Counted from the first letter of the stretch, positions 1,233-63,075 are shown. The stretch is 64,000 bases of DNA from a virus (IMGVR_UViG_3300042914_003763:53114-117113), one strand, 5' to 3'. The notes: generated by a model not told the origin, from the letters alone. Numbers and translations are program-made.

Positions 1233-2885
1233 ATGAACGAACGTAAACTAATAGATGAAATTAAGCTATCACTTCAACAAGAAGTTATTGCTGGTTATTG
1301 GAATGGTAAAGTATTTGTTAGTGATGACAAGAAAACATATACTAACATTATTTCTAACTCTCAACCTATTGGAGTAGGTTTCATAGTACCTTATGAGGGT
1401 AGATGGTTACTTGTTGTTGGTAATAGTAATAGTGAAGGTAGAAAAAATATTATTAATAGTAAGAGAAGTAGACGTAAACCTTTGATAGAGGAATTAGTCT
1501 ATCCTGTTATTACTTTATTTAATATTGATCAAACTTTTGAAAACTCATTTGAAAAAGAAACTAGATGGGTATATTTAGGTGGGAATAAACCAAGTAATAG
1601 ATTAGCAGTTAGAAATGGAGAGGATGTGGAGTTTATAAATATTCCTTTTGAGATAGAGGGAGAAGTTACAACAGCAATAAGAGGTTTTATATCAAGTAAA
1701 GATATTTATTTTAAATATAATGTTGGAATGCTAATCACTTTTTTATCAATTATAAATAAACAGAAAATAATGACAACAATAGAATTAACTGGAGGTACAG
1801 ATGTAGGAATGTGTGAGATATATAAAGGTGACGGGTTATGGGAATCAAGTCAATTTATCTCACGAAATCAAATGCACCCCGTCACAGTAAATGGAGAATT
1901 TTTAACATTTTCTCGTTCAGAACAAAATGGATCTGTTTACGCAACTTGGAACGGTAACTTTTCTTGGGAAAGAACAAGTCCATCTCCATTGTTTCCCAAC
2001 CAATTTCCACCATCCTATACAGATACAGTTATTGCGTCCTTACCTGTTTTGAACTTTAAAGAGGATTACTTTTTACAAGATTTAAGTTTCGTGATAGAGG
2101 CTGAGGGCGGCATTCCTTTGAACAATAAAATATATACAGAGGAGACAAACAACATCACTTTAGTTAACAAAAAAACTGGAGCATCACGAGCTATTAACTC
2201 TGATGATTATATTCGTATAGCTAGTTATTTTACTGATGAAATAACAGATACAAGTGGTGTAATTACCGCTTTATCGAGATATCTGCCAAATTTGCAACCT
2301 GAATACATGATAGGTATGCCAATACTTTTTTATTATGATGATCATTTACATTATGGATTCATAGAAAATGCTGTTATAGTAACTGGATTTTCATCCAATG
2401 GACGGGAATTTGTAGATCAAGGATTGAGAGTAACAATGTCATTTACTAAAAAAGTAAAACGTCCTTGTAGCTTCATTGGATTAATAGGACACAATGGTTC
2501 TTTCTTCAATTATTTCTATAAAAATAGCCCAGGGTTTATAAGATTAAGACCAGATTTTATAGGTTTTGATAATATAGAAGTTTTTTGTGGCCAATACGAA
2601 AAATTTACAAACATAAATGATAGTCACTTACTTCATTTAGATTGTACTAGGATAGTACATTTAGATACATTAAAAGGTAATAAAATCTATTCAGTTATAT
2701 CACCTAGAAAAGATTTAGAAGGAAAAATATTAGGAGAGTTAAAGGATACTGTCTACATAGAAGTCTGGAAGATAACAGAAGACGGTAAAATACTGTATTC
2801 TGACTTGATAACAGCTAATTATAACAACCTCAAAGAATCTCGATTTGATTTTAAAAATATTTATGCACACAATTATGTGTTGTAA
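1233..2885 (+). CDS. Hypothetical protein, probably structural
   Basis: 550 aa ORF in the + strand operon; no recognised motif. Confidence 0.55.
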   Translation: MNERKLIDEIKLSLQQEVIAGYWNGKVFVSDDKKTYTNIISNSQPIGVGFIVPYEGRWLLVVGNSNSEGRKNIINSKRSRRKPLIEELVYPVITLFNIDQTFENSFEKETRWVYLGGNKPSNRLAVRNGEDVEFINIPFEIEGEVTTAIRGFISSKDIYFKYNVGMLITFLSIINKQKIMTTIELTGGTDVGMCEIYKGDGLWESSQFISRNQMHPVTVNGEFLTFSRSEQNGSVYATWNGNFSWERTSPSPLFPNQFPPSYTDTVIASLPVLNFKEDYFLQDLSFVIEAEGGIPLNNKIYTEETNNITLVNKKTGASRAINSDDYIRIASYFTDEITDTSGVITALSRYLPNLQPEYMIGMPILFYYDDHLHYGFIENAVIVTGFSSNGREFVDQGLRVTMSFTKKVKRPCSFIGLIGHNGSFFNYFYKNSPGFIRLRPDFIGFDNIEVFCGQYEKFTNINDSHLLHLDCTRIVHLDTLKGNKIYSVISPRKDLEGKILGELKDTVYIEVWKITEDGKILYSDLITANYNNLKESRFDFKNIYAHNYVL

Positions 2886-2970
2886 TAATAACATTATTAA
2901 TTTTGTGTCATATGATTACAGTTATCATCCTGCATAATAGTAATAGATAACATATTAAATTAATGTAACT

Positions 2971-4326
2971 GTGAATAACTTATTTCTAACTTCCAAGATT
3001 ACAGCATTAACAACAGGAGTAGTACAAACTTTAAGCAATCCTAATAAACATACAATAAAAGAATATAAGGAAACATTACGTAATCCTTGGTTACGTGCTT
3101 GCATTAGAATGAAAGGTCAACGTGCTGCTAACTCAATAGGAGAATACCAATTTAAGAATAAAGAGATAGAAAAATGGGTTAAAAATAACATTAACAACGT
3201 ACATGGTAACTTACGTGAATTAGTTGGTGTGTTAGCTAGTGGTGCTAGTGCATTTGGACATATGGCAGTTGAAACAGCTAAGGAACGTAAGTACGGTAAT
3301 AAGTTCCGTAAAATTGAATGGCACTTAGGTGGATTTAACGTATTAGATCCTGAACGAGTACATTATGCAGGTAACTATGGCGCAATTAGTTATGTTAAAT
3401 ATCAAGATGCTGTTAGAGAATTATATATACCTTATGAAAAATGTCTTCATATTACTAACTCAGGAACATTAGACTTTAATAATGGTAGTGTTTATGGCGA
3501 TCCAGATTGTGAAGTAGCTTTTCCTTACGTTAAGTTGTATAACATTATAATGTCTGAAATGGCTATTAGTGCTAAGACATTAGCTACTGGTATTATTGTT
3601 GGATTAGCAGATGGAGATAATACAGTTTACTTGTATGACAATAACGGTGATCCGTTACGTGATAGTAATAACAACTTAATCAAACGTAATGCAGTACAAC
3701 ATCTAGCTGATCAACTAAAACAACTAGAAAATAGAAGTCATATTGTTACGGATAAGAAAAATAGTGTTGTACCATTACAAATACCAGCAGGTGAACAGTT
3801 CTGGACAATTAGCGAGAATATGTTGAAACGTAATATATTTGCTAGTTGCGGTGTTCCAGTAATGGTATTTGATGAAGGTAGTAGTGCAATAGCTACTGCA
3901 ACATTAAGTGTGAAACAAGAAACAACTCTTGATACCACTATTGCTGATATAGTGGCGCAAATTAAGGATCAATTGATAGAAAAAGTTATACGTCCGTTGA
4001 TTGTTGCTAATTTTGGTAAGCAATCCGACTATGGCGATTTCGTAGTTCAAGCAAGCGCAGATCCAGCACAAGACAGCTTAATAACCAGCAACTTGATGAC
4101 AGCATTCAGTCTTGGATTGTTACAATCAAGTGATATTGATGCAGTTAACGCATTACGTGAAAGGTTGAAACTACCACCTGTAACACCCGAACAACAGCAA
4201 CAACAAGCACAAATGACAGCTATGTTACAACAATTGCAACAACCTGCTGCACCTGAAGCTGACCCTAATAGTCAACCTCAAGAACAACAGGATGAAAGTT
4301 ATGATCAGCAATATCTAGCAGCGTAA
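2971..4326 (+). CDS. Phage portal protein (DUF935/Mu gp29-like)
   Basis: 451 aa with portal-type segments GASAFGHMAVE, DPERVHY, YGDPDCE, NIFASCGVP and LIEKVIRPLIVANFG; Q/P-rich tail. Confidence 0.75.
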   Translation: MNNLFLTSKITALTTGVVQTLSNPNKHTIKEYKETLRNPWLRACIRMKGQRAANSIGEYQFKNKEIEKWVKNNINNVHGNLRELVGVLASGASAFGHMAVETAKERKYGNKFRKIEWHLGGFNVLDPERVHYAGNYGAISYVKYQDAVRELYIPYEKCLHITNSGTLDFNNGSVYGDPDCEVAFPYVKLYNIIMSEMAISAKTLATGIIVGLADGDNTVYLYDNNGDPLRDSNNNLIKRNAVQHLADQLKQLENRSHIVTDKKNSVVPLQIPAGEQFWTISENMLKRNIFASCGVPVMVFDEGSSAIATATLSVKQETTLDTTIADIVAQIKDQLIEKVIRPLIVANFGKQSDYGDFVVQASADPAQDSLITSNLMTAFSLGLLQSSDIDAVNALRERLKLPPVTPEQQQQQAQMTAMLQQLQQPAAPEADPNSQPQEQQDESYDQQYLAA

Positions 4327-4978: not shown

Positions 4979-5043
4979 AGTTTTTATAATAGATAGAAAA
5001 ATAATGGTGCGGCGTTCAATCTAATTCGCCGCTTACTTGTGAA

Positions 5044-5352
5044 TTACTTAACTACTTTAATGCTGTTATCTTTCAACAACAACATTACTTCATCTAACTT
5101 ACTTTTTTCTACCTCTATTAAGATAGTTGTAGTTGTTTGTTTTTTCTTCCATAACTTAAACGCTGATTCAAACTCAATTCTAAAATTAACAGCATCATTA
5201 ACAAAGTAACCTAACTCTGTTAATTCGTATTCTTCATCGTCATTAAGTACCCATATATTAGGATACTTATCACAATCCCATAATATATCTGCTGGTAATT
5301 CAAATGTATCGTCATTCCAAAACTGTTTAATTTCACTACCTAATACTTTCAT
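5044..5352 (-). CDS. Hypothetical protein
   Basis: 102 aa, AGGAG RBS. Confidence 0.55.
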   Translation of the reverse strand: MKVLGSEIKQFWNDDTFELPADILWDCDKYPNIWVLNDDEEYELTELGYFVNDAVNFRIEFESAFKLWKKKQTTTTILIEVEKSKLDEVMLLLKDNSIKVVK

Positions 5353-5861: not shown

Positions 5862-6312
5862 TTAGATAACACATTCCTATAGCAGCACTATCACTACTAT
5901 GATCAGATAGAAAAATAGACTTATCAACTTTAAAATAATTAGCAGCGTTACTAGCTACTAATTCTTTATCAGCTTTACCATCTCCTGTTACTTGTTTCTT
6001 TATATGAGTAGCACTATATGAAATTATAGTAGCACCAACTTTAGCAGCATTAAGTTTAATAACACCTAATGCTTGACTAATGTTAGTACCATTAACACCT
6101 CTACCAATGAAACAAGGTTCTTCATACACAAATACTTCAGGTTTGTACTTATTAAATAACTCGCCGTACTTGTTATCTATATTAAGTAACTTATCCTGAA
6201 GTAATTTGTGTTTACTAACTACATCACCTACTTCTAATATAGTTAAGGTTGTTGTGTCAATAACACAGTAACTATTATTTATAACACCACAATCAGTTCC
6301 GATTAATATCAT
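5833..6312 (-). CDS. ruvC: RuvC-like Holliday junction resolvase
   Basis: ILIGTDCG, FVYEE, IKKQVTGDGKADKELV and DHSSDSAAI motifs. Confidence 0.85.
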   Translation of the reverse strand: MILIGTDCGVINNSYCVIDTTTLTILEVGDVVSKHKLLQDKLLNIDNKYGELFNKYKPEVFVYEEPCFIGRGVNGTNISQALGVIKLNAAKVGATIISYSATHIKKQVTGDGKADKELVASNAANYFKVDKSIFLSDHSSDSAAIGMCYLIEQGVTNHG

Positions 6313-6463: not shown

Positions 6464-6958
6464 TTATTTTCTCCTCACATAGTCAACATAACTGTAACCA
6501 TCATTCATTACTGTTTTTTCTATCTCCCATTCGCTATTCACGAATCGAAAATAAGTATCAGCATCGGGAAAATCTTGAAAAATATGAGTAATATACATCT
6601 TCTCCACATGAGGTAGAAAAATATTGTATATCTGTGAACCACCAATTACAAACACATCTTTCTTGAAACTTTTAGCAAGTTGTAATGCAGTAGCAGGATT
6701 ATTAACATAGTACAACTTACCAAAGTCATCAGTGCTAACATCGTAGTTCAAAGCTGATGATGTGAGTACGATATTGATACGATTAGCGAGTCTCTGACCA
6801 CCCAAATCGCCATCAAAAGTTCTTTTACCTACAATGACAACGGTATCAGTTGTAAGCTGCTTGAATCGTCTCTTATCGTCTCTATTGTTCCACACCAAAC
6901 CACCATTAGCACCAAGTTCACCGTTATGTCCAATTGCTGCTATTAAGTTAATCGTCAT
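6464..6958 (-). CDS. folA: Dihydrofolate reductase
   Basis: LIAAIGHNGELG..GGLVW, DKRRFKQLT, VIVGKRTF, LANRINIVLT, FVIGGSQIY, ADTYF. Confidence 0.92.
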   Translation of the reverse strand: MTINLIAAIGHNGELGANGGLVWNNRDDKRRFKQLTTDTVVIVGKRTFDGDLGGQRLANRINIVLTSSALNYDVSTDDFGKLYYVNNPATALQLAKSFKKDVFVIGGSQIYNIFLPHVEKMYITHIFQDFPDADTYFRFVNSEWEIEKTVMNDGYSYVDYVRRK

Positions 6959-7232
6959 TTTCTTTTTCTACCTCATACATATCAAATAAACTTTTTACGT
7001 AAAGTAAACCACGTAAATAACCTTCAGTTTCTACAGCATTAATTGTTAGATGATGATCGTTCTTTAGTTCATCAATTAAACGTCTAGTGTTTTCAATTTC
7101 ACAATATAATTCTCCATTAACATCTTCGTAGATATCACCTTGTCTAATTAGACTCGCTGTTTTATTTCTAACTAATTGATCAACTTTCTTATTGATATAA
7201 GATTCTAATTCTTGTAGTAAGTTATCTTTCAT
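6948..7232 (-). CDS. Hypothetical protein
   Basis: 94 aa ORF with GAGG RBS. Confidence 0.5.
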   Translation of the reverse strand: MKDNLLQELESYINKKVDQLVRNKTASLIRQGDIYEDVNGELYCEIENTRRLIDELKNDHHLTINAVETEGYLRGLLYVKSLFDMYEVEKENDD

Positions 7233-7465: not shown

Positions 7466-7765
7466 TTACCAAGTTAATCCTAAGTTATCAGCATTACCTC
7501 TACAAGTAAAGTTAGGATTATTATGACAAATCCAACTCTTACTAACTTGTAGTTGTAGTTCTGGTGATTGTTGTTTTAAAGCTTCACTACATTCAATATA
7601 AAGTTTACAAGTTACTGCACAATCTGAACATGACTTTGGTAGTAGTGGTAGTTCTCTATTATCATAATTTAACATCCTCATAAAGTATTCTTCATTGTAT
7701 TCAGTTTTTGGAGTGATATTACATTTAATTTTTTTCATTTTTCTATCTCTTAATTCTATAAACAA
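7466..7765 (-). CDS. Cys-rich hypothetical protein (possible metal-binding)
   Basis: CSDCA...WICH...CRG. Confidence 0.5.
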   Translation of the reverse strand: MFIELRDRKMKKIKCNITPKTEYNEEYFMRMLNYDNRELPLLPKSCSDCAVTCKLYIECSEALKQQSPELQLQVSKSWICHNNPNFTCRGNADNLGLTW

Positions 7766-8519
7766 TCATTTCTTTAACAGGTGTTCTATCACCATTACAA
7801 CTAATACTTCGTGGTGCAATAACATCACTAACTATGAAATCAGCATCACTATATAACTTAACTAACGTATCATCATAACTATTACTAGCTATAACAGTAC
7901 AGTTAAGTTGGGATAACCAATTAACTAATCGTAGTTGATCTTCCCATTTGAAGTCTTGTTGTGCATATTTAGTGAATACATTATAGTAAGGTGGATCTAC
8001 ATATACAAAATCATCATCATTAATCTCAAGTTGTTCAAAATCACTACAAGAGAAACAATAGGTAGAAAAAAGATTAGTGTAGTTAGTGAAGTCTTGTAGC
8101 AACTTAACTGTTTTGTATTTACCGTATGGTACATTAAATTCTCCTTTGTTATTGAATCTACAAAGACCATTGAAACAATGTTTGTTTAGATAGTAAAACA
8201 ATAACGCCGCATCTTTAGTTAAGTAGTTATTTTCTTCTATCCAAATATTAAACTGATTACGCCAAGTGTAATAGTAACTTTCATCATTAACAAACAAATC
8301 TAAGTTAATATCTAGTTGTTGTTGTATTTGTTTATAGAGGTTAATTAAGTGAGGATTAACGTCATTAAGTAATGCAACTTCTGGTTCAATATGTAATGTA
8401 ACAGCACTAGCACCACAAAACGGTTCAACTAATCGTTTATAGCTACCAGCATAATAATGTTCTGCTATATGATTAGCAAGGTGTCCTTTTGATCCACACC
8501 ATTTTAACAAGGGTTTCAT
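7743..8519 (-). CDS. dam: Dam-family (D12 class) DNA adenine methyltransferase
   Basis: LKWCGSK, LVEPFCGASAV, FNGLCRFN..GEFNVPYG, YVDPPY. Confidence 0.92.
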   Translation of the reverse strand: MKPLLKWCGSKGHLANHIAEHYYAGSYKRLVEPFCGASAVTLHIEPEVALLNDVNPHLINLYKQIQQQLDINLDLFVNDESYYYTWRNQFNIWIEENNYLTKDAALLFYYLNKHCFNGLCRFNNKGEFNVPYGKYKTVKLLQDFTNYTNLFSTYCFSCSDFEQLEINDDDFVYVDPPYYNVFTKYAQQDFKWEDQLRLVNWLSQLNCTVIASNSYDDTLVKLYSDADFIVSDVIAPRSISCNGDRTPVKEMIVYRIKR

Positions 8520-8660
8520 AACTACTCTCCATAAGGAAATAACACTAACAATGGTAAGCTACAGATGGTCGCAATAGTAAAGCTGTAATAATCACCAGCT
8601 AACCATCTGTCACATAAACCAAATGCAAAACCACCAGATAGAAAAATAAATGCTGCGAGT

Positions 8661-9013: not shown

Positions 9014-9772
9014 CTAATCTGGTATTCGTTTATTGCGCCGCACAAAGTCTAAAGCCGTTAGTAATCTATTATATGTTTTTTCTACCTCTTTCAGTCTATC
9101 TTCTGATATTTCATCGTTGTGTTCACTTGCAAACTGTATTTGTATAACACCATAATAATTGTTCTTTTCACCATTAACAGGAATAAGTCTAGTGTAAACA
9201 GCTTCTAATCCTATGCTATTAAGATATTGCTTGCAACCATTATCAACGTTAACATCTGAAATAGCATTACGAGTAAACTTATCTGATTGGTAAGTTAATA
9301 ACTCATCTTCTATTCCAGTTACATCAATATTCTTATAGCGTTTACGTAATGATGTTATACCAGTTTTAAGTGACTCATATGCCAGACTTAACTTAGTGAA
9401 ATGAAAACTCCCAACACTAGTACCATTATGAAACAATCCTACTACAACACGATCTGCATCAGTTAACGCTCTTAACTCAATTAATATTTGTTCTATTTTC
9501 TTCTTCTGTTGAACCGAATCCTTATTGATGTAAGCTATTATGTTACCAGTTGTTGTTTTAAGTAATCTTATTTTACTAATATGATTTTGTATCACTACTA
9601 CACTAGCTAGTAGTAACAATAATAAGTTAATAAAACTAATAGTACCTGTTTCTTTATATATTTTAATAGTATCTGTAATTAATTCTATTTCTACATTAGT
9701 ATTAGGTTCTTTAGTTGTACTTGTTGTTTGAGCAATGAACATAAAATATGATGTACGATATTGAATTACCAT
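9014..9772 (-). CDS. Single-pass membrane protein with GAF-like domain (possible T4 T-type holin)
   Basis: TM segment FINLLLLLLASVVVI followed by ELRALTDADRVVVGLFHNG...YGVIQIQF GAF pattern. Confidence 0.5.
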   Translation of the reverse strand: MVIQYRTSYFMFIAQTTSTTKEPNTNVEIELITDTIKIYKETGTISFINLLLLLLASVVVIQNHISKIRLLKTTTGNIIAYINKDSVQQKKKIEQILIELRALTDADRVVVGLFHNGTSVGSFHFTKLSLAYESLKTGITSLRKRYKNIDVTGIEDELLTYQSDKFTRNAISDVNVDNGCKQYLNSIGLEAVYTRLIPVNGEKNNYYGVIQIQFASEHNDEISEDRLKEVEKTYNRLLTALDFVRRNKRIPD

Positions 9773-9814: not shown

Positions 9815-10303
9815 TTATACATCGTTATTGTGTTCATCTTTCGTCTCATTACTTAACTTAATAAGAGAAGATAACACTGAATTAAATATTTCACGTTTCT
9901 CTTCTATTTGACCACCAGCGATAACTTCGTGTAAATCAAAGTCCTTCGATTCAATACCGAACTCTTTTACATAACTATTCACGTAATTAGCCCGATTTAA
10001 GTTGGAATATAACCATTTCAACAAATCAAAGGTATAAATATTTGATTCAATTTCAATATCTAAATCCTTTAATTCATTGATACTACTATCAGCAATCAAA
10101 CTAAGTACATCAACAATATAATTATACACATAGTCATCAGGCATCATGTCACCATGAGCTACACGACATAATTCTTGTAATTTAGGATCGGCATCATCTT
10201 TTCGCTTGTAGGTAGAAAAATTTTCAGTTCGTTCTAACGGTTCAAACTGATCAACATAACGTGCTGCTAATTCTCGTACTGCATCCACATTGTAATCTGA
10301 CAT
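9815..10303 (-). CDS. Acidic helical protein, possible Ocr-like DNA mimic
   Basis: Start MSDY after an AGAGG RBS; D/E-rich; IYTFDLLKWL segment. Confidence 0.4.
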   Translation of the reverse strand: MSDYNVDAVRELAARYVDQFEPLERTENFSTYKRKDDADPKLQELCRVAHGDMMPDDYVYNYIVDVLSLIADSSINELKDLDIEIESNIYTFDLLKWLYSNLNRANYVNSYVKEFGIESKDFDLHEVIAGGQIEEKREIFNSVLSSLIKLSNETKDEHNNDV

Positions 10304-10372
10304 AATTCCTCTTTTTCTATCTCTAATAGCCACCAACAACAGTAATTGGAAACTTAATGAACGGATGACTAA

Positions 10373-11002
10373 TTACCAATTTAAAGCACTACTTACAATT
10401 GGTAATTCTGTAATGAACAATTGTTTAACTTCATTAGCTAAATCGTAATGTTCTTTCTGTGTGCCAGATTCAGGGTTAGCACGAACATTTAAATAATGAA
10501 TCCAACTCCTGATTGTACCATTCATATACATCTTAGTTGTACTACTCATTGGTAATATACGTCTCGCTGATTCTTTAGCAATACCTTTATCTAATGCTTC
10601 ATTATAGGTAGAAAAAAGTAATTGGTTTATGTAATTAACATTATCATCAAACCACTGTTTTGTTTCTACCTCTAAATCATCAATACTATTCTGACGGTTT
10701 TTCACATCTTGACGACGTGGAATAGTTGGTTCAACTGTGAGAACTTTGGCGTATCGTTGTGAAAACTCTTGAAACGAAAAAGATTTATGTCTAATTATTT
10801 GTGCTGATATATCTCTCGATGTAGTTAATTCAACACACATATTACCCATTTCAAATATAGACCAGTGTTGATGCTCAATACAATATCTAAGCAACTTAAC
10901 AACATCAGGATTATCTTGATTAGCAGAATTACTAACTCTAGCACAGTAACCTATAATTTGTTCTACGTTTGGTGTCATCCAAACAATTTTTACTTTATTC
11001 AT
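10373..11002 (-). CDS. thyX: FAD-dependent thymidylate synthase
   Basis: [35 protein letters not shown]. Confidence 0.95.
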
Positions 11003-11779: not shown

Positions 11780-12520
11780 TTAATTCAAGTCCAACATTTG
11801 AGCTAATGTTTCTTCAAGATAAGCAACATCTTCACCATAGTACAATACGTTATTCTTGTACATTGGTAATGATTCAAGATGTTTACCTACTCTTAATGCA
11901 CTAGCAGCACGTTTACTAAATGTATGTCGTTTAGTCCAACTACCTAATCCCTTACTAACTAAATATTGTTGTGCAGTTACAGCTTGTTCTGTTGAATCGT
12001 TATCAGAGTTAAGTATATTGAAACAACCAGGATTACTAATACCTTTACGAGTAAATTGTTTTAATTGATTACTGTCTTCAAGTAAGCGACGATTAATGTT
12101 AGTTTGTTCTTCAATGAACGTGAGTATCTTACTCATATCGTTAACAGGAGAGATAGAAAAATGTCCTGTTTTACGTAAGGTAGGTAAGACTTCTGATGTT
12201 ACCCATTTCTTAAACTTCTTAGCTTCAGGTTTAGTGCTGTTGAAGATAGCTGCATACAAACCTGATTCATTTATAATGGAAAGTCTGAAACTATTGTCTG
12301 GTAAGGATTGTGCTATTTCGGGAAATAGCTGAGGATTAATTTCTCGCTTATCTTCATCGTCTATAAGTTGCAACATTTTACCTGTACCACTATATTCTAG
12401 TAATTCGGATAAATCTTTAGCTACGAACCAATGGTCATTATCTAATTCAACAATTCTAATAGATCCGTAGTTTTCGTACTTAAATAACTGTAACATCGTA
12501 ATCTCTTTATTGTTTATCAA
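11780..12520 (-). CDS. Bro-N domain (antirepressor-like) DNA-binding protein
   Basis: WFVAKDL, INESGLY, KPEAKKFKKWVTSEVLPTLRKTG. Confidence 0.88.
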   Translation of the reverse strand: MINNKEITMLQLFKYENYGSIRIVELDNDHWFVAKDLSELLEYSGTGKMLQLIDDEDKREINPQLFPEIAQSLPDNSFRLSIINESGLYAAIFNSTKPEAKKFKKWVTSEVLPTLRKTGHFSISPVNDMSKILTFIEEQTNINRRLLEDSNQLKQFTRKGISNPGCFNILNSDNDSTEQAVTAQQYLVSKGLGSWTKRHTFSKRAASALRVGKHLESLPMYKNNVLYYGEDVAYLEETLAQMLDLN

Positions 12521-52729: not shown

Positions 52730-52759
52730 TTCTTTTTCTACCTTTTGTAAATGTATATA

Positions 52760-53225
52760 TTTCTAGAAGTTGATAAAGGTACTTCTAGCATAAACCGTTA
52801 TTGAAGGCAATAACCTGTAACTTATCTTTGCTTCCTTATAGTTACAGTTTTGTTACTTGTCTTGGTGTAACAATAACCTAGACTTGTTGCTAACTACGTT
52901 AGTAGCGTACTGTGAGAAATACAACCTCTACAGTAATAAGTTTAGTTAGGATATTTCTAATCACATTTGTCGTGATTCTTATTGCAATAAGAAGAAATAT
53001 CAATTAGCATTTGTCGCTACTTAACTAATTAACTTACCGTAAGTCATTCCTACATACATTAGTGTCATCTAATTAGTTACTGTAGTTATAACTAATAGAT
53101 CAAGTGACTAGAACACAACTAATCTAGTATCATAAGTTGAAGAAGATAACACCTCTAATGTAATAACGTAATTAACTTAGTTTTACATCTAGCATTACTG
53201 TAACTAGATAACCTTATCACAGGTA
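52760..53225. other. ORF-free array of tandem and nested hairpins (candidate ncRNA or origin)
   Basis: Many adjacent inverted repeats, e.g. CTAGAAGT/ACTTCTAG, GTTATTG/CAATAAC, CTGTAACT/AGTTACAG, GATATTTCT/AGAAATATC. Confidence 0.5.
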
Positions 53226-53230
53226 GAAAA

Positions 53231-54583
53231 TCAGATATCTTGACGGTAAATGCCACCAGTGGCAGCACTTATCATCTTGAGATGATCGTTACTGCTATTT
53301 AGGATGAATGAGTGCAACTTAGCACCCTTTAGATCCCCAGGTTTAACACTAGTTGCATCGTCTTCACCATCGTTTACAACAATGATGTGACGATCTCTTT
53401 TGGAAATAGCACCTTTATTTTCAAGTGCTATCTTATCAAACTCCTCTAACGCTTCTTGAATAGCGTTAGCTACATCAGTTCCACTCTTGTCGAAAGAGTG
53501 TTTTATGATCTTTTTTCTATAAAATTTATCTATATTACCATCATCAGGCAATAGATAGAATTTATGACAAGAACTCTCAAAGAAAGAGAAATTTAACCAA
53601 CATTCACCACGTTTAACACGCTTGAGAATGTTGTGTATTATACCTATAGCTTTCTTTGACTTGCTATTAGTCTGCATACTACCTGAATCATCAACAATAA
53701 GCGTAACAAACGGCATTTTAAACTCTCGTTTGTATTTTTCATCAACTCTTGCTTCATTGTTGATGACACGATATGCCATCATTGGTAATGGGTTTACAAG
53801 TTCTAATGGGTTTATGCGATGAAACTCATCAAAACCCTTAATACTACGCGCTATTTTAACATCACCTTGATCATCCTTGATTAATTTAGATGAAGGCTTA
53901 GTTTTTATGGCTGATATCTTGTCCATTTCGTTACTAGCACGAAGAATATCGCGCATAACATCGGACTTAACAAGACTTTCAATGTTATAATTATCATCAT
54001 CTTTTAGATCAAGAAGTTCTTTATCTTCTTGATCTAATTTTTCAACAAGTTCAATCGCTTCGTTGATTTTTTTAGCTTCTTCTCTAACCTTCCCTTCAAA
54101 GGTAGAAAAAATGGGAATGGTTGGTGAACCACTACTATCATTACTACCAGATGATGAATTAGCTTCTTCACCGAGATATTTAATTGTATTAATTGCTTTT
54201 TCAAGTGGGGTAGTACCTGGAATACCATCCAGGTTTAATGATTGAAGAAAGGTTTGGATATTTTGATGATAGCCAACATCTTTTTCTACCCATGCTTGTT
54301 TAGCGATTGAGTAATTTTTTGTATAATTAGAATCGAAATCGTTTGGGTTATCGGGTAATGTGTAGTCACCATCATAATCCGGTTCTAACACTTTATTAAA
54401 GTTGTTAGAACAGTGATCAAAAATATTACTAGCGGATACAAATGATCCACCACTAGCGATATTACACAAATCTTCTACTAAGTCAGGAGCATATGCCTCT
54501 ACTCCTAATTCTTTAGCTAATTTTCTTACTTCATCAGCAGATGGATGAAGGTAACTAGGTGAAGGGATAGTTCTAATCGTCAT
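53231..54583 (-). CDS. VWA-domain protein (ViaA/CoxE-like)
   Basis: MIDAS DDSGSM, SGTD, VVNDGED. Confidence 0.85.
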   Translation of the reverse strand: MTIRTIPSPSYLHPSADEVRKLAKELGVEAYAPDLVEDLCNIASGGSFVSASNIFDHCSNNFNKVLEPDYDGDYTLPDNPNDFDSNYTKNYSIAKQAWVEKDVGYHQNIQTFLQSLNLDGIPGTTPLEKAINTIKYLGEEANSSSGSNDSSGSPTIPIFSTFEGKVREEAKKINEAIELVEKLDQEDKELLDLKDDDNYNIESLVKSDVMRDILRASNEMDKISAIKTKPSSKLIKDDQGDVKIARSIKGFDEFHRINPLELVNPLPMMAYRVINNEARVDEKYKREFKMPFVTLIVDDSGSMQTNSKSKKAIGIIHNILKRVKRGECWLNFSFFESSCHKFYLLPDDGNIDKFYRKKIIKHSFDKSGTDVANAIQEALEEFDKIALENKGAISKRDRHIIVVNDGEDDATSVKPGDLKGAKLHSFILNSSNDHLKMISAATGGIYRQDI

Positions 54584-54673
54584 ATTTGACTATTTTTTTT
54601 TGGTTATTAATGAGATAGAAAAATAATAGTAGTTAAGTTAGTATGTTGCGATTAACTTAACTACTAATTAATA

Positions 54674-55855
54674 TTAGAGCGATTCAGATCCACACATGAT
54701 TGAATTATCACGTTCATTAGCAGCCTTAACTACGAGATCCGCGCATTTCTTCTTAACGTTGTTAATACGTGATGTTAACGAGTCTGGATATTTACCGCTA
54801 TTACTAATCTCTGTCTCTAATGATTTAGCAAGTTTCCATATTATAGCGGCGTTAACTAATTTTCCCTTCTCAGGGTTATTAAGTTTATGGAAACCTCTAT
54901 CAATTCTTCTTTCAAATTCGTTTATTTTTTCTACCTGAATATCGTATTGTTTCTTGCGTTCCATCTCTTCTTCTAGACCTGCTAGTAGAGATGTATCCCA
55001 ATACGATAAGTAGTTCAAAATTCGTAAATCTTCCATATCAGCAGTATTAGCATCACGAAGATAAGCTGCTGATTTGATAAGTTTTTGTGTCCATTTATAT
55101 GCTCTAGGAGATATAATACTCCCGTTTTCTCCTGATTTTTGTGCTAGATGTTGGAGTAGACCTTTAATGGAACTACTTAGGATAATACTTGACACATCTT
55201 CACGCATCATATCAATTTCCGTTATATCAATAGCAGATACGTCATGTTTAACTAGTTCATCATCATCGAGAAGAGCATAATCTGCTGCATCATGACTATC
55301 CCAGCCATGATTAACAACCAGAAATCGTTGTAAAAAGGCATCGTATGAATTTTGTTGAATCTCAGGTAGAGATTCTTTTAGTTCAATTGGGTTAAGATTT
55401 GTAGCAGCAACTAATACTTTGTTAATTGACTTTATTTCTTCACCACTAATATTTAACATACGATTAGTGATGACAGCTTTCAATACAGATAACGCGTTAA
55501 AACTCGCATCTAACGCTTCTTCAAAGAAAAACTTGTGTCGTTGTAATACAGAAGCAGCAATATTATAATGTGCTTCTGTTAGGTCGTATTTTTCACCCTT
55601 CAAAGTACGACCAATTGCGCCACCTTTTATGTGACTAGCTGATGTTTCAGGGTCACATTCAAGCATACCCTGAGATCCTTTTATTGCTTTAAACGAACTA
55701 AGAATCATTTCAGTCTTACCATAACCACCTCTACCGTAGTAGAGGATTGGAATACCGGAAAGAATAGATAAAGATAAGGAATCAGAAAAACTATCGAATT
55801 TAACAAAACCAGAGTTAGCAAGTTGAGCGTTGATAGAAGATTTGATTGTAGACAT
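54674..55855 (-). CDS. MoxR/RavA-family AAA+ ATPase
   Basis: GRGGYGKT, FFEE, AATN, AFLQRF, ISPRA; start re-set to MSTIK. Confidence 0.82.
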   Translation of the reverse strand: MSTIKSSINAQLANSGFVKFDSFSDSLSLSILSGIPILYYGRGGYGKTEMILSSFKAIKGSQGMLECDPETSASHIKGGAIGRTLKGEKYDLTEAHYNIAASVLQRHKFFFEEALDASFNALSVLKAVITNRMLNISGEEIKSINKVLVAATNLNPIELKESLPEIQQNSYDAFLQRFLVVNHGWDSHDAADYALLDDDELVKHDVSAIDITEIDMMREDVSSIILSSSIKGLLQHLAQKSGENGSIISPRAYKWTQKLIKSAAYLRDANTADMEDLRILNYLSYWDTSLLAGLEEEMERKKQYDIQVEKINEFERRIDRGFHKLNNPEKGKLVNAAIIWKLAKSLETEISNSGKYPDSLTSRINNVKKKCADLVVKAANERDNSIMCGSESL

Positions 55856-55886
55856 GACTCGTACTCCAATATGATATGTGGTTAAC

Positions 55887-55915
55887 AAGTTAGTTTAATG
55901 ACATAACTTAGGTCA
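55887..55915 (-). ncRNA. H-type pseudoknot motif, copy 2
   Basis: UGAC-CUAAGUUAU-GUCA-UUAAAC-UAACUU. Confidence 0.6.
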
Positions 55916-55922
55916 ATATAAT

Positions 55923-57845
55923 TTACAGTTTGCTTATTGATGTAAGAACTGTGAACTCTCTACCACCGTTACGTGGTTTAATAGTACGTGGTATTCCTAC
56001 CACTTCATCATCTATGTTAAGCGAACTAACAACTGAATTACGTTCAGCTGTTACGATAACTCCTGTTTCTATACACCTAAAGTTATTACCATGACGACTA
56101 CCGCCTATGTAACGATACTTACGCATGGTAGTTGCTAAACAAACTTTATAGTTTTCAGGATTACTATCCTTACTAACTATATTGTTAGTTGAAATTAGTT
56201 GGGTTAACTTAGTAACGTTATCCTTAATTTGAAATAACTTCTTACTAATTAACTCATGTTGATAATCACGTCTATCTTGACTGTTATTAATGAATCTCTT
56301 ATATAAGTTCATTAACGTTGCAATATCGCAGTCCTTAACTGGGTTAGTTGCAACACTAATATCACCTTTAAAGAAATTACCTACTCCTAATAATGAAGTT
56401 GCTAGGATAGTTGTACTAACACAACCTAACTCAAGAGACTTAACTAGCATCACAGCTAAGTTAGTATCAAGAGGTAATTTACTAACTTCGATACCAAAGT
56501 TAGTTATAGCACCTAACTCATCAATACAACCCCATTTAGTTAATAACTCAATTGCATTATTAACTGCATCTTCTGTAGGTTGATGCACGAAAGATAAGTC
56601 TCTAAGTGATTTATTTATTTTTCTAACTGACAACTCTAAAGACTCAACATTAATTCTTTTTATTTCAGGGATAGGGAACTTGATACGAGAACTATAGCTA
56701 GTATCACTAACCAGATAATACGTACCATCACAAGTACGTCCAGTTCTTCCCTTACGCTGATCAAGTTCGGCTTGACTACATAATGTAGGTGATATTTTCC
56801 ATATACCATCTACAGATGATACTTCTTTCTTGATACCGTAATCAACCACAACTTGCAGGTTTTCTGGTGTTACACCTGCGGCACATATGTCTGTGCTTAA
56901 AATTATTTCGCTAACACCATGATCCTTGATGGTGTCATGGATATTATCAACCTCACTATGACAGTGAGTGATACGAACATTTATTTTTTCTACCTCGAAG
57001 TAGGACTTCAATTCATGATCTAATTCAATAATTTCTCCCTTACCAGCTAGGAATATCAGAATACGATCACCATTACTAACGTGCTTTTTCAGAGATAGAA
57101 ATAACTCTTTATTATTACCAAGATGATGTTCAACTATGGGACATTTCACACCACCCATGTGGATGTTACCAATTGAATAGCCATCAAAATAGCTATTAAT
57201 TTCATCGTCATTGAGAGTTGCACTAACAATCAATACGCGGGTTTTCCAACCATTAGCTAAACGTTGTTTAATTAAAGCAAGACATAATTCTTGCTGTTGA
57301 CTAAACTCATGACATTCATCTATTGCCACAAAGTCCGGTTCAAATGTCGGATCTAATAACTGATTTACTAATACACCTGTAGTAACAAACATTCCAGGAG
57401 CATTAGTATTGAACGACGCATTACCGTTGCGATAACCAACTTTACACTGCTTACTACAATACTCGTGAAGAGAATAAGTATTTATAATTCTTGGTTGTGC
57501 GGATATTATATTATAACCAGCGTTAACTAATTGGATCATTGAATTAGTTGACTTACCTGATCCAGTATCACCACGCAGAATAGTTATCTGGTTTTGCATG
57601 ACTTTAGATACAAAATCAGATAATGGGTTGCTAACGCTTAACAATTTTTCTATCGCTATTTGTTGTTGTTGTAATTTAACCGTTAATCTTTTTTCGAGAT
57701 CGATCAACTTAACAATATATTTCTTTTTACCTAGACCGATCAACTTGAATAAACTGCTAATTTCACCTTTGATACGACGAATGCTAACTACTAATTCATT
57801 ATTAGAAGAATTAACGGAAACTTGATTTAAAGATAATGCTTGCAT
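55923..57845 (-). CDS. DEAH/RHA (HrpA/HrpB-like) RNA helicase
   Basis: GDTGSGKST, QPR, DECHE, SAT, FLAG, QRKGRTGR, HA2-like region. Confidence 0.9.
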   Translation of the reverse strand: MQALSLNQVSVNSSNNELVVSIRRIKGEISSLFKLIGLGKKKYIVKLIDLEKRLTVKLQQQQIAIEKLLSVSNPLSDFVSKVMQNQITILRGDTGSGKSTNSMIQLVNAGYNIISAQPRIINTYSLHEYCSKQCKVGYRNGNASFNTNAPGMFVTTGVLVNQLLDPTFEPDFVAIDECHEFSQQQELCLALIKQRLANGWKTRVLIVSATLNDDEINSYFDGYSIGNIHMGGVKCPIVEHHLGNNKELFLSLKKHVSNGDRILIFLAGKGEIIELDHELKSYFEVEKINVRITHCHSEVDNIHDTIKDHGVSEIILSTDICAAGVTPENLQVVVDYGIKKEVSSVDGIWKISPTLCSQAELDQRKGRTGRTCDGTYYLVSDTSYSSRIKFPIPEIKRINVESLELSVRKINKSLRDLSFVHQPTEDAVNNAIELLTKWGCIDELGAITNFGIEVSKLPLDTNLAVMLVKSLELGCVSTTILATSLLGVGNFFKGDISVATNPVKDCDIATLMNLYKRFINNSQDRRDYQHELISKKLFQIKDNVTKLTQLISTNNIVSKDSNPENYKVCLATTMRKYRYIGGSRHGNNFRCIETGVIVTAERNSVVSSLNIDDEVVGIPRTIKPRNGGREFTVLTSISKL

Positions 57846-59698: not shown

Positions 59699-60017
59699 TT
59701 TTTTTCTATCTCCAGTAATTGAATAAACATGACAATCCTATTGCAATACGGTACATGAGGTATTGCAACACTGTTAGTAATTAACTAGCAGCAAAGTGTA
59801 ACTAACTAATTACGTTATGTAAGTAAGTTAGTTACACTTAACTGGTATTTAATTTTTTGGTTATTGTAGTACGTTAGTTGTACTACTTCTTTAACGTCTT
59901 AACCTTACATTATATAAGTAACAAGACGTGATCTATTGCAACAAAAAAGCTACCTATAAGTTAATATAGGTAGCTTAGTTGTATGATCTTTTTTTTTTGA
60001 TTAAGTAACTAAGGTAG

Positions 60018-61100
60018 TTACCTACTCACCCCTGTTTGACGGTACAAGTTAAACGGTGTACCGACATCAGGTAATCTAGTTACCTTAGTTACGGTAACTG
60101 GTTTAATTACCTTAACTATTGATTGTACTTGTTTAGTTGTTGTAGTAGGTTTAGTTGTTGTTGGTTTAGTCTTACTAACCTTACTACATATGGTAATTTT
60201 ATTTTCTTGTTGTGTTAGCTGTTTATCTACAGCTAACGTTAAGTTATTAACACTTACGACATATTTTTGATTAATATTATTTACAACTTGGAATTTATCA
60301 TATGTAATTAGCTTAACTACCTTAACAAGATGTTTGTTATGTGGTTTATCTAGGTTAGGTGTAAACCAACATATGTCATCTATATTAAACAACTTCTCTT
60401 CATAATAGCTAAAGCTACTATGAGAGCTTTCAACTTTGATGTAGTCTGTTTCTGATAGCTTACTTGGTTTTATCTTTTCTACTTGTTTACGAGAGATTTT
60501 ATCTCTCTTATTCATTCTGATTATTTCAGTACGTCTAAGACCAGGTACTTTTTCATAAGTACCTACGAAGTCTTTTACACCCTCTATACGTTGCAAGAGA
60601 GGTAGAAAAACAGAGTTAAATATTTCTTCTCCAGAGAAGAAATCAGTACCTTGAATAGTACCGATCTCGATAAACACATAAGTGTTATATGACTGATCTT
60701 GTTTGTTGTTTATCAAGTCATACTCTCTAGGGAAACCTAGATCGAGAATATAATCACTTAATTTAAAATTATGTGTAATATAACCTGCTTCAACTAGGTC
60801 TTTTTTAGTATCTATTGCATTATTATTAATAATCTTATTTATTTTTTCTATGACTAACATCTCTTGACCATTATCGGTATGAAGTACATACCAAGATGAG
60901 GGTAAGTCTCTAGTGTTAGTAACTATAGTTGTATTTTCTGTAATGTTGTTAGTCATATGATGTTTCCAGATTAATTTTTGTAATGTTACATGAGGTAACA
61001 ATGTGTTTAGTTTATTGAATATATTAATTTTTTTTTCTAATGCAAGCGAAATTAACTCAGTGTGTGGCATTAGAAATAAACTTGTTTTTGTTATTTGCAT
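60018..61100 (-). CDS. Hypothetical protein with T/K-rich tail
   Basis: 360 aa; possible N-terminal HeH-like helices; TKPTTT repeat. Confidence 0.6.
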   Translation of the reverse strand: MQITKTSLFLMPHTELISLALEKKINIFNKLNTLLPHVTLQKLIWKHHMTNNITENTTIVTNTRDLPSSWYVLHTDNGQEMLVIEKINKIINNNAIDTKKDLVEAGYITHNFKLSDYILDLGFPREYDLINNKQDQSYNTYVFIEIGTIQGTDFFSGEEIFNSVFLPLLQRIEGVKDFVGTYEKVPGLRRTEIIRMNKRDKISRKQVEKIKPSKLSETDYIKVESSHSSFSYYEEKLFNIDDICWFTPNLDKPHNKHLVKVVKLITYDKFQVVNNINQKYVVSVNNLTLAVDKQLTQQENKITICSKVSKTKPTTTKPTTTTKQVQSIVKVIKPVTVTKVTRLPDVGTPFNLYRQTGVSR

Positions 61101-61197: not shown

Positions 61198-62997
61198 TTA
61201 TTCTATAAGTCTATAAGGATACGTATCCTTATAGTCGTAACTAACGTTACCCTTACTCGATTGTGGGATAACGTTTATCCCTAACAGTTGTTTCCAGTTA
61301 ACAGTTATCCTACTACAGAATATTGGGTTAAGCGTCACTATTCCGTGTAGCGTTAGTAGTTGTTTGATCTCTGGTAGATCATTAACTTGATTTTTATTAC
61401 TTATGTAAGTAATACATCCTTTATGGATGTATATGATACCTAAGTAGTGTACTACATGATTAGTACACTGTAATCCTAGTCTACCCAATACTTTACTTTG
61501 CGGGATCTTGTGTTCTTTAAGGAACACTATTAGATCCCGGTTAACTTCCCTATATATAACGTCTTGTTTGTGACGTATAGAATTTATTTGTTTGGATCTA
61601 TGCTGATGATCATAATATATATAATCATCATGATAATTATCAAAACATAATTTTTCAGTGTAACACAGTGACAGATCACCGTGTTTGTTTGTTTGTTTGC
61701 TTAATTTCTCATATACTAATCTGCTACCTAGCAGATCAGATAATGCTGTTAAGCTTAAACACATATCACTGAGATATGTTCTTAGTGATAGATCAGACGA
61801 TGGTATTTTACTCGTTACGTCACTCTTTGATCTTTTACTTAATATATTATTTTGTTTAACTTTAGCACCCGTAGATCGAGTGATTATGATATCTTGTATT
61901 CTTTTATGATCCTGTTCTACACAGGTGTTGTAGTCCCAACTTGTGTTTATAATTCCGTTGAATATGTTTAGATCCGGGATCATTATGATCCTATTTTCTA
62001 ATGGATCGAGTTGTAAACTTATACAACTCATCAGATCCGCGTGAAGCGTATCAACCCGGATCTGTTTAATAAACTCATAATATGAGTCATCTAAAGATTG
62101 TAGTATGTTAAATGCAATTAACAATGGTGATTTGAGTATTTTTACATACTCACCGCTATCTTGTATCAAGTACCCTATTAAGGAATATAAAACATCATGA
62201 TTTATGCTTTCAAAATATTTATTACTACGCTTATACATTTGGTTAAGTTGTTTGAAACTTAACTTAGTAACATTCTCTTTAATACTACTAATCAAAGAAA
62301 ACGTGTTTGGATCATATTCTATCTTCCAGATACTTTTAGGGTTATTATTATATTGTTCCGAAATTAAATTAAGTAAAATATGATCTTCACAGTCATATCT
62401 TACAGTTATTTTTTGTTTATTATATTCACTTTGTAATTCATCTGGTATATCTATAGTTATTTTTTCTATCTCGAAAGATAGTAAGCCACGTAGTTTAATA
62501 CCTGTAGGATTATCTGGTATTGAGATAATGCAACGATTAACCCAGTAGTCTATACCTTGGAAACTGTTACTTCTTACTGGTGGATTCTCTTTAATTCTTT
62601 GTAATATTGATTGTTTGTAAGTAGGCTTAATAAATTTGTTTTTATTTTTTTTGTTTATATTATTTTCTTTATTGTTACGTTCTATACTGACAAGATCAAC
62701 ATTATAATAATCGTTAATCCGTGATCCGGTATGATCTGATGTTAAATCATCAGATGATACCTGATCATCTATACTGAAAGGTTGATTTAACCTTTTTTGA
62801 TCTTGTAATCTTACGTCATTATTAATATCTAAAACTGTATGTTTATTTTTATTATTAGTATTAGTTGCATCCTCTTGAGTTAATGCAGCATTAGAAATTA
62901 AAAGTTCAATTATCTCTTGTGATTTAAGATTTGCTTTTATACCGTGTTTTTTAGCAAGTGATTGTAACTCACTTCTAGATAAAGTTGTGTATTTCAT
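61198..62997 (-). CDS. Large protein with N-terminal SAP/HeH/Rho_N nucleic-acid-binding motif
   Basis: LSRSELQSLAKKHGIKANLKSQEIIELL. Confidence 0.65.
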   Translation of the reverse strand: MKYTTLSRSELQSLAKKHGIKANLKSQEIIELLISNAALTQEDATNTNNKNKHTVLDINNDVRLQDQKRLNQPFSIDDQVSSDDLTSDHTGSRINDYYNVDLVSIERNNKENNINKKNKNKFIKPTYKQSILQRIKENPPVRSNSFQGIDYWVNRCIISIPDNPTGIKLRGLLSFEIEKITIDIPDELQSEYNKQKITVRYDCEDHILLNLISEQYNNNPKSIWKIEYDPNTFSLISSIKENVTKLSFKQLNQMYKRSNKYFESINHDVLYSLIGYLIQDSGEYVKILKSPLLIAFNILQSLDDSYYEFIKQIRVDTLHADLMSCISLQLDPLENRIIMIPDLNIFNGIINTSWDYNTCVEQDHKRIQDIIITRSTGAKVKQNNILSKRSKSDVTSKIPSSDLSLRTYLSDMCLSLTALSDLLGSRLVYEKLSKQTNKHGDLSLCYTEKLCFDNYHDDYIYYDHQHRSKQINSIRHKQDVIYREVNRDLIVFLKEHKIPQSKVLGRLGLQCTNHVVHYLGIIYIHKGCITYISNKNQVNDLPEIKQLLTLHGIVTLNPIFCSRITVNWKQLLGINVIPQSSKGNVSYDYKDTYPYRLIE

Positions 62998-63035
62998 GAT
63001 TATTCTGTTCCTTTATTTTTTTTTAGTTATGTGTG

Positions 63036-63075
63036 GATAGAAAAAAAACACAACTACCATACAGTAGTTGTGTTT
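63036..63075 (-). terminator. Intrinsic terminator ending in the GATAGAAAAA motif
   Basis: AAACACAACTAC/GTAGTTGTGTTT stem. Confidence 0.7.

Follow-up and report, generated by a model that had tools for sequence, protein, structure and literature searches.

A hyper-iterated, strand-balanced 11-base word in a phage genome as a candidate start site for the phage's own primase

What could be gained by writing one short word into the genome of a large freshwater phage about once per kilobase, on both strands? The word is AGRTAGAAAAA, and it was noticed in a 64,000-nt stretch of viral DNA, hereafter the window, which comprises bases 53,114-117,113 of the 117,113-bp IMG/VR virus record IMGVR_UViG_3300042914_003763. 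The whole record is referred to as G000, and its strains and relatives carry labels in G or L. A reading made from the window's sequence alone (the sequence-only reading) had described a dispersed signal and offered a menu of roles for it, which included DNA uptake sequences (DUS) and uptake signal sequences (USS), HIP1, Chi, FtsK-orienting polar sequences (KOPS), and a priming or helicase-loading site. Comparison of sequences favours the last of these as the best supported option, and we put the chance at slightly better than even that AGRTAGAAAAA is the extended recognition and start site of the phage's own T7 gp4/DnaG-type primase, acting with the adjacent DnaB-like helicase.

The iteration of the word is confirmed and departs strongly from chance. 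The window holds 66 copies of GRTAGAAAAA (36 on the + strand and 30 on the - strand), whereas 100 dinucleotide-preserving shuffles of it had 0.84 on average and never more than 4, which bears out the earlier estimate of about 60 copies where about one would be expected by chance. The base 5' of the 10-mer is A in 58 of the 66 copies, G in 4, C in 2, and T in 2; the word is therefore AGRTAGAAAAA and not RGRTAGAAAAA, so that the core of the motif first proposed stands and its leading R does not. Across the whole 117,113-bp genome, whose record ends in direct terminal repeats of 127 bp, AGRTAGAAAAA has 112 copies (57+/55-), or about 1 per kb, compared to 0 and 1 for a control word consisting of the same letters read backwards. 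It is the genome's top over-represented k-mer, at 150-200 times the order-3 Markov expectation. Sequence beyond the 11-mer is not conserved around the copies, and the unit is therefore an isolated 11-mer and not a piece of a larger repeat; a larger repeat or miniature inverted-repeat transposable element was ruled out on the same ground.

To place the copies relative to genes, we made our own crude gene calls for the whole genome (158 open reading frames [ORFs], 89% coding). Of the 112 copies, 46 are in sense and 35 in antisense orientation within genes, 30 are intergenic, and 1 falls on a boundary; none is in sense frame 0 because the word contains TAG. The peptides encoded at the copies are E/K/Q-I/V-E-K, xDRKK/xGRKK, FLS/FLP, and FST, matching those that the sequence-only reading had listed for copies lying in several frames and on both strands. 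When synonymous codons were permuted within each gene with the proteins kept, the 81 in-gene copies compared with 5.7 ± 2.1, and when codon order was shuffled the expectation fell to 0.87, which rules out a codon or protein artefact. The enrichment thus persists under a null that preserves codons and proteins and is supported as acting on DNA rather than on protein, as had been claimed; the evenness on each strand and the graded variants described below point the same way. Some antisense copies may also be under selection at the protein level. Seven genes of the structural arm, at G000 5090, 12463, 14690, 21217, 30035, 31351, and 40933 (outside the window), start M-FFLS[D/N], coded by the word's reverse complement straight after the start codon, and FFLSD recurs internally in three genes. 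Among the 35 antisense copies inside genes, as many as 11 encode FFLS[D/N], 7 of them right after a start codon, and it is these that may be doubly selected.

One-mismatch variants of the word define a graded recognition site. Changes in positions 4-9 (TAGAAA) are found at background level, whereas variants at positions 1-3, 10, and 11 are enriched 5-15 times, giving a strict core with soft edges.

The copies are also placed in a regular manner. They are more evenly spaced along the whole genome than random (coefficient of variation 0.79, p = 0.006), and the largest gap between them is 3,422 bp (p = 0.005). With positions fixed and strand labels permuted, evenness on each strand (p = 0.0003) and strand balance at 5 kb (p = 5e-5) were both significant; spacing on one strand averages about 2 kb, with a maximum gap of 6.6 kb. 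Part of this signal is short-range, as adjacent pairs less than 300 bp apart lie on opposite strands in 18 of 21 cases, so close direct repeats are avoided. Long-range strand alternation is not present in G000, since adjacent pairs at 500 bp or more comprise 35 on the same strand and 40 on opposite strands, and a runs test on isolated sites gave z = 0.6. With the orientation of close pairs taken into account, evenness and balance persist (p about 0.012, 0.025, and 0.001, the first for evenness on each strand and the last for balance at 5 kb). Evenness on each strand was replicated in three relatives carrying words of their own (G408, p = 0.001; G412, p = 0.029; G414, p = 0.0085), as was the tendency of close pairs to lie on opposite strands (pooled, 22 vs 4). 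Together, these results indicate that the word appears to be read strand-specifically.

The avoidance of close direct repeats makes sense in light of a natural deletion of about 490 bp (window 19121-19610), which was seen in contigs from three independent studies (X5, X12, X19) and is bounded by same-strand copies at 19115-19125 and 19604-19614 (both +). Ten letters fit on either side of the junction, and the deletion takes out a small - strand ORF (about 19294-19584).

Graded variants and regular placement bear on the idea, patterned on proposals made for HIP1 of cyanobacteria, that the word arises with no benefit to the phage from sequence-biased repair, from conversion, or from a process coupled to methylation. 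We regard such a drive as very unlikely. In its favour, the phage encodes a D12-class adenine methyltransferase, of which weak homologs occur in the word-bearing loci L112 and L114, and strain comparison shows turnover of copies instead of strict conservation. However, a conversion drive would deplete one-mismatch neighbours, and these are enriched; the even spacing on each strand and the shortness of the largest gaps imply that placement is selected; the site that Dam usually recognises, GATC, occurs about as often as expected; and a Dam-like enzyme of 258 aa would be unlikely to read 11 asymmetric bases. The likeness to HIP1 that had been suggested does not extend to form, as HIP1 is palindromic and AGRTAGAAAAA is asymmetric. 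A polar signal of the KOPS type is contradicted by the strand balance.

The candidate reader of the word is a 281-aa protein with a zinc ribbon and a Toprim domain (window 25580-26425, - strand), which its features and structure identify as a T7 gp4/DnaG-type primase. It was picked up by ESM Atlas features, with values of 0.95-0.97 to Toprim and T7 gp4-type primases and template-modelling (TM) scores of 0.5-0.65. Among 42 homologs, C27, C30, and C50 of its zinc ribbon (CPVCGG...C...C) never vary and C45 is kept in 90% or more; E170-G-E-K and D217-x-D219, the Toprim acidic motifs, are likewise invariant, and a PDNDxxG motif is present. An AlphaFold (AF2) model built from the 42 homologs has a predicted local distance difference test score (pLDDT) of 93.6, and its top Foldseek matches are 1NUI, T7 gp4, Twinkle, and the Aquifex and E. 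coli DnaG proteins, with probability 1.00 and TM scores of 0.37-0.51; we attribute these modest TM scores to a flexible link between its two domains. The primase gene is followed by that of a DnaB-like (AAA_25) replicative helicase of 625 aa (23731-25608, - strand; PF13481, E = 4e-21, with a weak DnaB_C match), whose start overlaps the end of the primase gene and which matches primase/helicase families in PHROG. Among the DNA binders that the sequence-only reading had named, the primase is thus the best candidate, and none of the others (the proteins at 61198, 60018, and 58199 and the Bro/Rha proteins) gained support.

If the word belongs to the primase, it should change with it, and we compared loci from relatives of this phage on that basis. 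A dispersed hyper-iterated word was scored when the top 9-mer occurred at at least 6 dispersed places and at a density of at least 0.4 per kb in loci of at least 8 kb. Where a locus held a full-length primase relative, such a word was found in 11 of 14 cases, compared to 18 of 196 loci in the comparison set (10 of 121 chosen as polymerase relatives and 8 of 75 with the Toprim half only). In whole records, the top de novo word belonged to the family (T/C)A(A/G)GAAA in all 10 genomes with a full-length primase relative, and a family-type top word was present in only 3 of the 121 polymerase-relative loci. Relatives defined by the polymerase (161 loci) share only the polymerase and the terminase with this phage at the BLAST level; none of them has more than 1 copy of AGRTAGAAAAA, and a primase match lies in the flanks of only one.

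The top words of these genomes follow the primase tree. AGRTAGAAAAA of G000 is related to, and distinct from, GTAAGAAAA of G408 (42/45, control 1/0), and the two primases pair with support 95/93. G412, G413, and G418, whose primases are 38-45% identical and whose GC contents range over 27-37%, share the word GTTAGAAA(A) (26/30 in G412 and 25/21 in G413). G417 and G419, with primases 61% identical (support 100/99), share (G)CAGAAAA(A)GA. The remaining top words are CC(G/A)TAGAAGAG in G415, GTCCGAAATA in G414 (30/24 for GTCCGAAATAA), and ATTCTAGAA in G416. TAG, TAA, or CAG is held in the words of 9 of the 10 genomes, G414 having CCGAAA. In the nine closest loci (L416-L424), only the primase and the helicase are common to all, and they are always adjacent; the family B-like polymerase is common only to the G408 group among the primase relatives. 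More distantly, the cultured Pseudanabaena phages PA-SR01 and Pam2 have primases 29-30% identical, and PA-SR01 carries CAGAAAAGA (19/17, control 2/1). Copies in PA-SR01 lie opposite the local gene strand in 24 of 36 cases (p about 0.07; 30 of 50 for the 8-mer), neither of which is significant. Sister words are also found in other freshwater phages (GTAAGAAAA, GNTAGAAAA, and GGCAGAAAAGAA), which do not count as independent evidence.

These observations suggest a mechanism. According to passages of PMC2978363, primases of bacteria and phages start on defined trinucleotides, in the case of DnaG proteins d(CTA), d(TTA), and d(CTG). The first primer base is laid down opposite the middle one of the three, primers in E. 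coli mostly have pppAG at their start, and the cryptic 3' base is determined by residues of the zinc-binding domain (ZBD). The three trinucleotides given there are complementary to the TAG, TAA, and CAG of the words, and the primers predicted from the words begin pppAG or pppAA. In the proposed scheme, the helicase-primase would move along a single-stranded template, and its zinc-binding and RNA-polymerase domains would recognise the complement 5'-TTTTTCTAYCT-3'. Synthesis would start opposite the middle base of 5'-CTA-3', so that the primer would begin pppAGAAA; positions 4-9 of the word (TAGAAA) would then be the cryptic base and the first primer bases, and positions 1-3 would be flanking template on the 3' side, with a modulating effect on binding. 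A site of this length almost never arises by chance, and the genome must therefore encode it, on both strands and at about Okazaki spacing. Sites on both strands would be needed if forks run either way, as in recombination-dependent replication; an AAA_24 ATPase and a single-stranded DNA-binding protein (SSB) are encoded by the phage and may be mentioned beside this possibility. The data show the enrichment, the selection on DNA, the evenness on each strand, the identity of the primase, and the joint variation of word and primase lineage; we infer from them that the primase reads the word, where its primer starts, and why both strands have sites.

Several observations weigh against a primase start site. 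Orientation in G000 has no strand polarity (57+/55-, with a cumulative range of -4 to +5 along the genome), and in all 10 genomes it is balanced along the genome and relative to local gene direction, with no confinement to the lagging-strand template and no switch at an origin; this does not fit a simple single-origin model with sites on the lagging strand only. To our knowledge, a word of about 21 bits is far longer than any known primase site. The predicted active sites of T7, by contrast with those here, switch strand at the origin, as described in a section of PMC12839067. No Pfam primase family matches the 281-aa protein at threshold, and PF08275 and PF13155 gave nothing in six frames at E values up to 0.1, the sequence being divergent. 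Recognition of the word by the primase is a proposal built on sequence and models. Only about 7 lineages contribute, all of them related by phylogeny, and most comparison loci span only +/-10 kb. L043, L113, and L114, which are polymerase relatives, have other words with no match to the primase in their flanks, and G416 has an outlier second word, GATGTCAATA. Some copies lie at hairpins or terminators, and G414 has many inverted GTCCGAAATAA pairs 23-34 nt apart; both could mean that the word acts in RNA or in duplex DNA. In strains 1-2% apart, motif positions are not spared from substitution (6 observed vs 6.2 expected). Finally, the association does not tell whether the primase, the helicase, or another gene inherited with them is responsible.

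This last point leaves room for a different reader, some other protein inherited with the replication module that would mark or organise the DNA instead of starting primers. Candidates are a site-specific nickase, for which the nick-site motifs of T5, tf, and phiKMV phages are a precedent, a helicase loader, the HU/IHF-family protein (G000 5888-6181), and a 288-aa protein (window 27563-28429). Taken jointly, we judge these candidates unlikely. They gain from the fact that the association data show linkage to the module and not to one protein, that the gene of the 288-aa protein is common to 7 of the 9 close loci and an HU/IHF-family gene is present, and that overall even spacing fits an organising role. 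Yet only the primase and the helicase occur in all nine loci, a binder blind to orientation does not predict evenness on each strand in four genomes, and the match of the TAG/TAA/CAG core to the DnaG trinucleotides would have to be a coincidence.

The copies outside genes raise the possibility of a role in transcription. Intergenic copies are placed where they cost little. Several of those in sense orientation end 0-3 nt before a start codon, resembling a ribosome-binding site and its spacer; in the window, these lie on the - strand at 18799-18809 and 59701-59711 (each ending 2 nt before the start codon), 33269-33279 (ending at the start codon), and 52733-52743 (3 nt before). Antisense intergenic copies place their T-run after a GC hairpin and resemble a terminator U-tract. 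A hairpin of -8 kcal/mol or stronger abuts 8 of 31 intergenic copies compared to none of 81 coding copies and 3% of background 36-mers. Copies of this kind in the window, all on the + strand, are at 4991-5001, 15963-15973, 20484-20494 (a terminator T-tract on the - strand), 28762-28772, 35419-35429, and 41922-41932, where the hairpin is strong. The sequence-only reading had placed copies at ribosome-binding sites and terminators, which agrees with these contexts, and another in a promoter spacer at 49611-49623; a copy is present there, but as one arm of a divergent pair (49613-49623, -, and 49643-49653, +).

We consider it highly improbable that the word is a transcription signal, in which RNA polymerase would be recruited or paused, by way of a NusG-like protein, where the non-template strand carries the word or its complement, and the T-run would act as the terminator U-tract. 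The protein in question (360 aa, window 60018-61100, - strand) has a borderline match to the NusG NGN domain (21.4 bits vs a cut-off of 22.2), its structural neighbours in the Atlas are NusG proteins, and GGTAG also occurs in the RfaH ops element; the 8 intergenic copies that abut hairpins speak for the same role. Against this, orientation is balanced relative to gene direction in all 10 genomes, 81 of the 112 copies are inside genes, the NusG-like model is poor (Atlas pLDDT 0.54, TM 0.28), and no transcription gene is common to the word-bearing lineages.

Strains and bacterial genomes were compared to determine where else the word occurs. No close DNA relatives were found in the phage collection, and a scan of viral contigs for the same word returned only L313/G407 and L404/G406, strains 97.6-99% identical and thus not independent, with 28/27 copies in G407 and 6/7 in G406. 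Non-homologous cassettes that vary between G000, G407, and G406 have no copy of the word in any of these strains, with 0 in 5,846, 6,260, and 2,450 bp as opposed to expected numbers of about 6, 6, and 2.5. In G000 these cassettes lie at 26742-29172, 52764-54337, and 54630-56032, the last two reaching window 1-2919, and one of them makes up the genome's largest word gap. Cassette boundaries do not coincide with word copies when coordinates are compared. The right-hand cassettes lie among large + strand genes that may be tail-fibre-like. All six motif substitutions between strains are copies present in G407 and missing in G000, and the agreement with expectation noted above means that the word turns over, with no purifying signal at the strain timescale. 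Of 179 differences from public contigs, 40 are listed, and none of these falls in a word copy, compared to about 0.6 expected, a number too small to be informative. The contigs come from 23 runs and gave no sites at which molecules begin or end, features that contigs do not display.

In 401 evenly sampled Bacteroidota genomes, the word was as frequent as its reversed control (at most about 48 copies per genome), and in 151 Cyanobacteriota genomes it reached at most about 0.017 per kb, with a few genomes 2-4 times above control. A two-copy pattern run over GTDB genomes gave scattered single hits or tandem repeats among the matches listed. The word is therefore not equally common in AT-rich bacterial genomes, where it has at most about 0.017 copies per kb; it is private to the phage and at background in the Bacteroidota and Cyanobacteriota sampled, and the host may lie elsewhere.

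These data bear on two further explanations. The first, which we hold to be quite unlikely, is a Chi-like mark of self that attenuates a helicase-nuclease entering at ends or breaks, either a host RecBCD/AddAB enzyme or one of the phage's own. Chi marks self DNA, and both orientations, even coverage of each strand, small maximum gaps, and recently exchanged cassettes that lack the word are all compatible with such a mark. No Chi-type enrichment or skew was found, however, in the sampled Bacteroidota and Cyanobacteriota genomes, which are candidate host phyla; no phage-encoded RecBCD/AddAB-like nuclease was seen among the about 70 ORFs scanned; and a self mark leaves unexplained why the word would follow the primase tree across phages of 27-41% GC. 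The second explanation, that the phage copies a host-derived signal, either a DNA-uptake sequence or the host Chi, has very little to recommend it. The density, the presence on both strands, and the pairs at terminators do look like USS/DUS. The word nevertheless equals its reversed control in the 401 Bacteroidota genomes, stays at or below 0.017 per kb in the 151 Cyanobacteriota genomes, and gave only scattered single hits with the GTDB pair pattern among the matches listed, and related phages of unlike GC have a word in common if their primases belong to one clade. Among the roles on the original menu, DUS/USS and host Chi are thus unsupported in the genomes searched, and priming or helicase loading is favoured.

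The remaining copies in the window, given by window position, are as follows (10-mer denotes a copy in which position 1 is not A). On the + strand, 11-mers lie at 1436-1446, 3164-3174, 5905-5915, 6611-6621, 8060-8070, 8636-8646, 10210-10220, 10606-10616, 12151-12161, 14744-14754, 17598-17608, 22277-22287, 23922-23932, 25778-25788, 26080-26090, 27518-27528, 31303-31313, 39880-39890, 45938-45948, 46721-46731, 54100-54110, 54613-54623, and 60600-60610, and 10-mers at 3975-3984, 42766-42775, and 63036-63045. On the - strand, 11-mers lie at 5104-5114, 6515-6525, 6963-6973, 7738-7748, 9077-9087, 10312-10322, 13458-13468 (intact within a divergent allele), 16814-16824, 21415-21425, 24222-24232, 24667-24677, 25291-25301, 25350-25360, 28112-28122, 36854-36864, 37698-37708, 42225-42235, 44861-44871, 54926-54936, 56985-56995, and 62461-62471, and 10-mers at 15361-15370, 25753-25762, 29129-29138, 54281-54290, and 57645-57654.

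Pfam and PHROG scans covered about 70 ORFs and gave no primase. They identified a family B-like DNA polymerase (20962-23058, - strand; phrog_1252, E = 3.6e-127, with PF00136 on homologs), the AAA_25 helicase, the SSB, the AAA_24 ATPase, ribonucleotide reductase, ThyX, and dUTPase, together with the D12-class (Dam-like) adenine methyltransferase (258 aa, window 7743-8519), Bro-N and KilA-N proteins, a DEAD helicase, the HU/IHF-family protein, and the borderline NusG-like protein. A PDB sequence search with the primase, helicase, and NusG-like proteins returned no matches. A ThiF/E1-like protein is encoded at window 37910-38695. A crAss-type virion RNA polymerase was considered and rejected, with no DFDxD in any ORF, and the phi14:2 preprint, in a passage on its early promoters, gives them as having no common motif. 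Among palindromes in the 117 kb of G000, GGCC (2 copies) and GAATTC (1 copy) are strongly avoided and TCGA (94) and CATG (168) are also low; GATC has 340 copies, and its frequency at expectation fits the phage's own Dam-like methyltransferase.

Other iterated words were seen in the course of the comparison. L043 and L126 have AWCACTAAAAAGA (23-24 copies in 12 kb), L112 and L114 have CGGCCGAA (22-35 copies in 9-14 kb) plus a mostly one-strand CCCGGCGA, and L113 has TCACTCAAG (13 copies in 14 kb); apart from CCCGGCGA, these words occur on both strands, and all of them are unrelated to AGRTAGAAAAA. L112 also has a distant match to this primase family, and the methyltransferase homologs of L112 and L114 mentioned above are weak. 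In G414 (the record of L422), convergent GTCCGAAATAA pairs could form hairpins with 11-bp stems. The IMG/VR polymerase relative L015 has the top word AGCGATCGC (7 copies), which contains the cyanobacterial HIP1 palindrome and suggests that its host is cyanobacterial.

A wider reading of the primase start site is more doubtful, and we offer it tentatively: a clade of large freshwater phages, including the cultured Pseudanabaena phages, may have primases with a specificity of 8-11 bases and, co-evolving with the ZBD, a priming map that is dense and balanced between the strands. Such a map would work in replication as a lock and key, by which the replisome would prime efficiently only its own DNA. 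Recognition by primases is usually treated as a preference of 3-5 bases that is met by chance, and our literature search found no paper on genome-wide iterated primase words, supplementary motif tables being outside its scope. If the proposal is true, there is a group of phages whose primases are specific enough to reshape codon and amino-acid choice genome-wide; the replication signal would be readable from sequence and primase specificity predictable from genomes, and the pairs of ZBD and word would form a natural series for the study of how a zinc-binding domain reads DNA. It would also suggest a principle of self and non-self in phage replication and explain a class of iterated phage words. 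Tolerance of a new cassette would end at about one Okazaki length unless the cassette had gained words, and divergence of the word would isolate lineages in replication and recombination. The sister word in the cultured phage PA-SR01 makes the idea open to bench testing.

Among known systems, the T7 gp4 primase is of the same class as the predicted primase, combining a zinc ribbon and a Toprim RNA-polymerase domain with a DnaB-family helicase, and its sites likewise have a strict core holding the cryptic base and the first primer bases with softer flanks. PMC12839067, in the sections that concern T7, states that the primase needs 5'-(G/T)2GTC-3' and about 10 nt of 3' flank, that only a subset of sites is used, and that Okazaki fragments measure about 1-6 kb, and it cites 177 pentanucleotide sites; the spacing of AGRTAGAAAAA is within that range. 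The phage described here differs in that its word has about 11 specified bases compared to 5 in T7, is enriched 150-200 times where T7 relies on chance supply, and is equally represented on the two strands without a change at an origin, and in that the primase and helicase are separate genes. The bacterial DnaG proteins offer a second likeness, as the cores TAG, TAA, and CAG are the complements of their trinucleotides; for DnaG, however, 3 bases suffice and bacterial genomes are not written for it, whereas 8-11 bases are fixed here in a lineage-specific manner.

In its distribution, the word is most readily set beside the DUS of Neisseria, the USS of Pasteurellaceae, and Chi, which occur at about 1 per kb on both strands under DNA-level selection and are missing from recently acquired DNA. 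AGRTAGAAAAA has these features, plus some inverted pairs at terminators, but unlike them it is private to a phage lineage, is not enriched in the sampled candidate host phyla, and tracks the primase clade. The ssiA and ssiB sites of RSF1010, which are read by the RepB' primase, are comparable as a long, specific start signal for a dedicated primase; they occur in small numbers as structured elements of about 40 nt that include a hairpin, and they are served by a primase of the archaeo-eukaryotic type, in contrast to the roughly 100 short, unstructured copies and the predicted Toprim primase of this phage. The stoperators of cluster A mycobacteriophages, which are asymmetric sites of about 13 bp, mostly intergenic and in one orientation relative to transcription, resemble the word in being asymmetric and dispersed through a phage genome, and theirs are read by a phage protein; AGRTAGAAAAA differs from them in having 81 of its 112 copies within genes and a balanced orientation.

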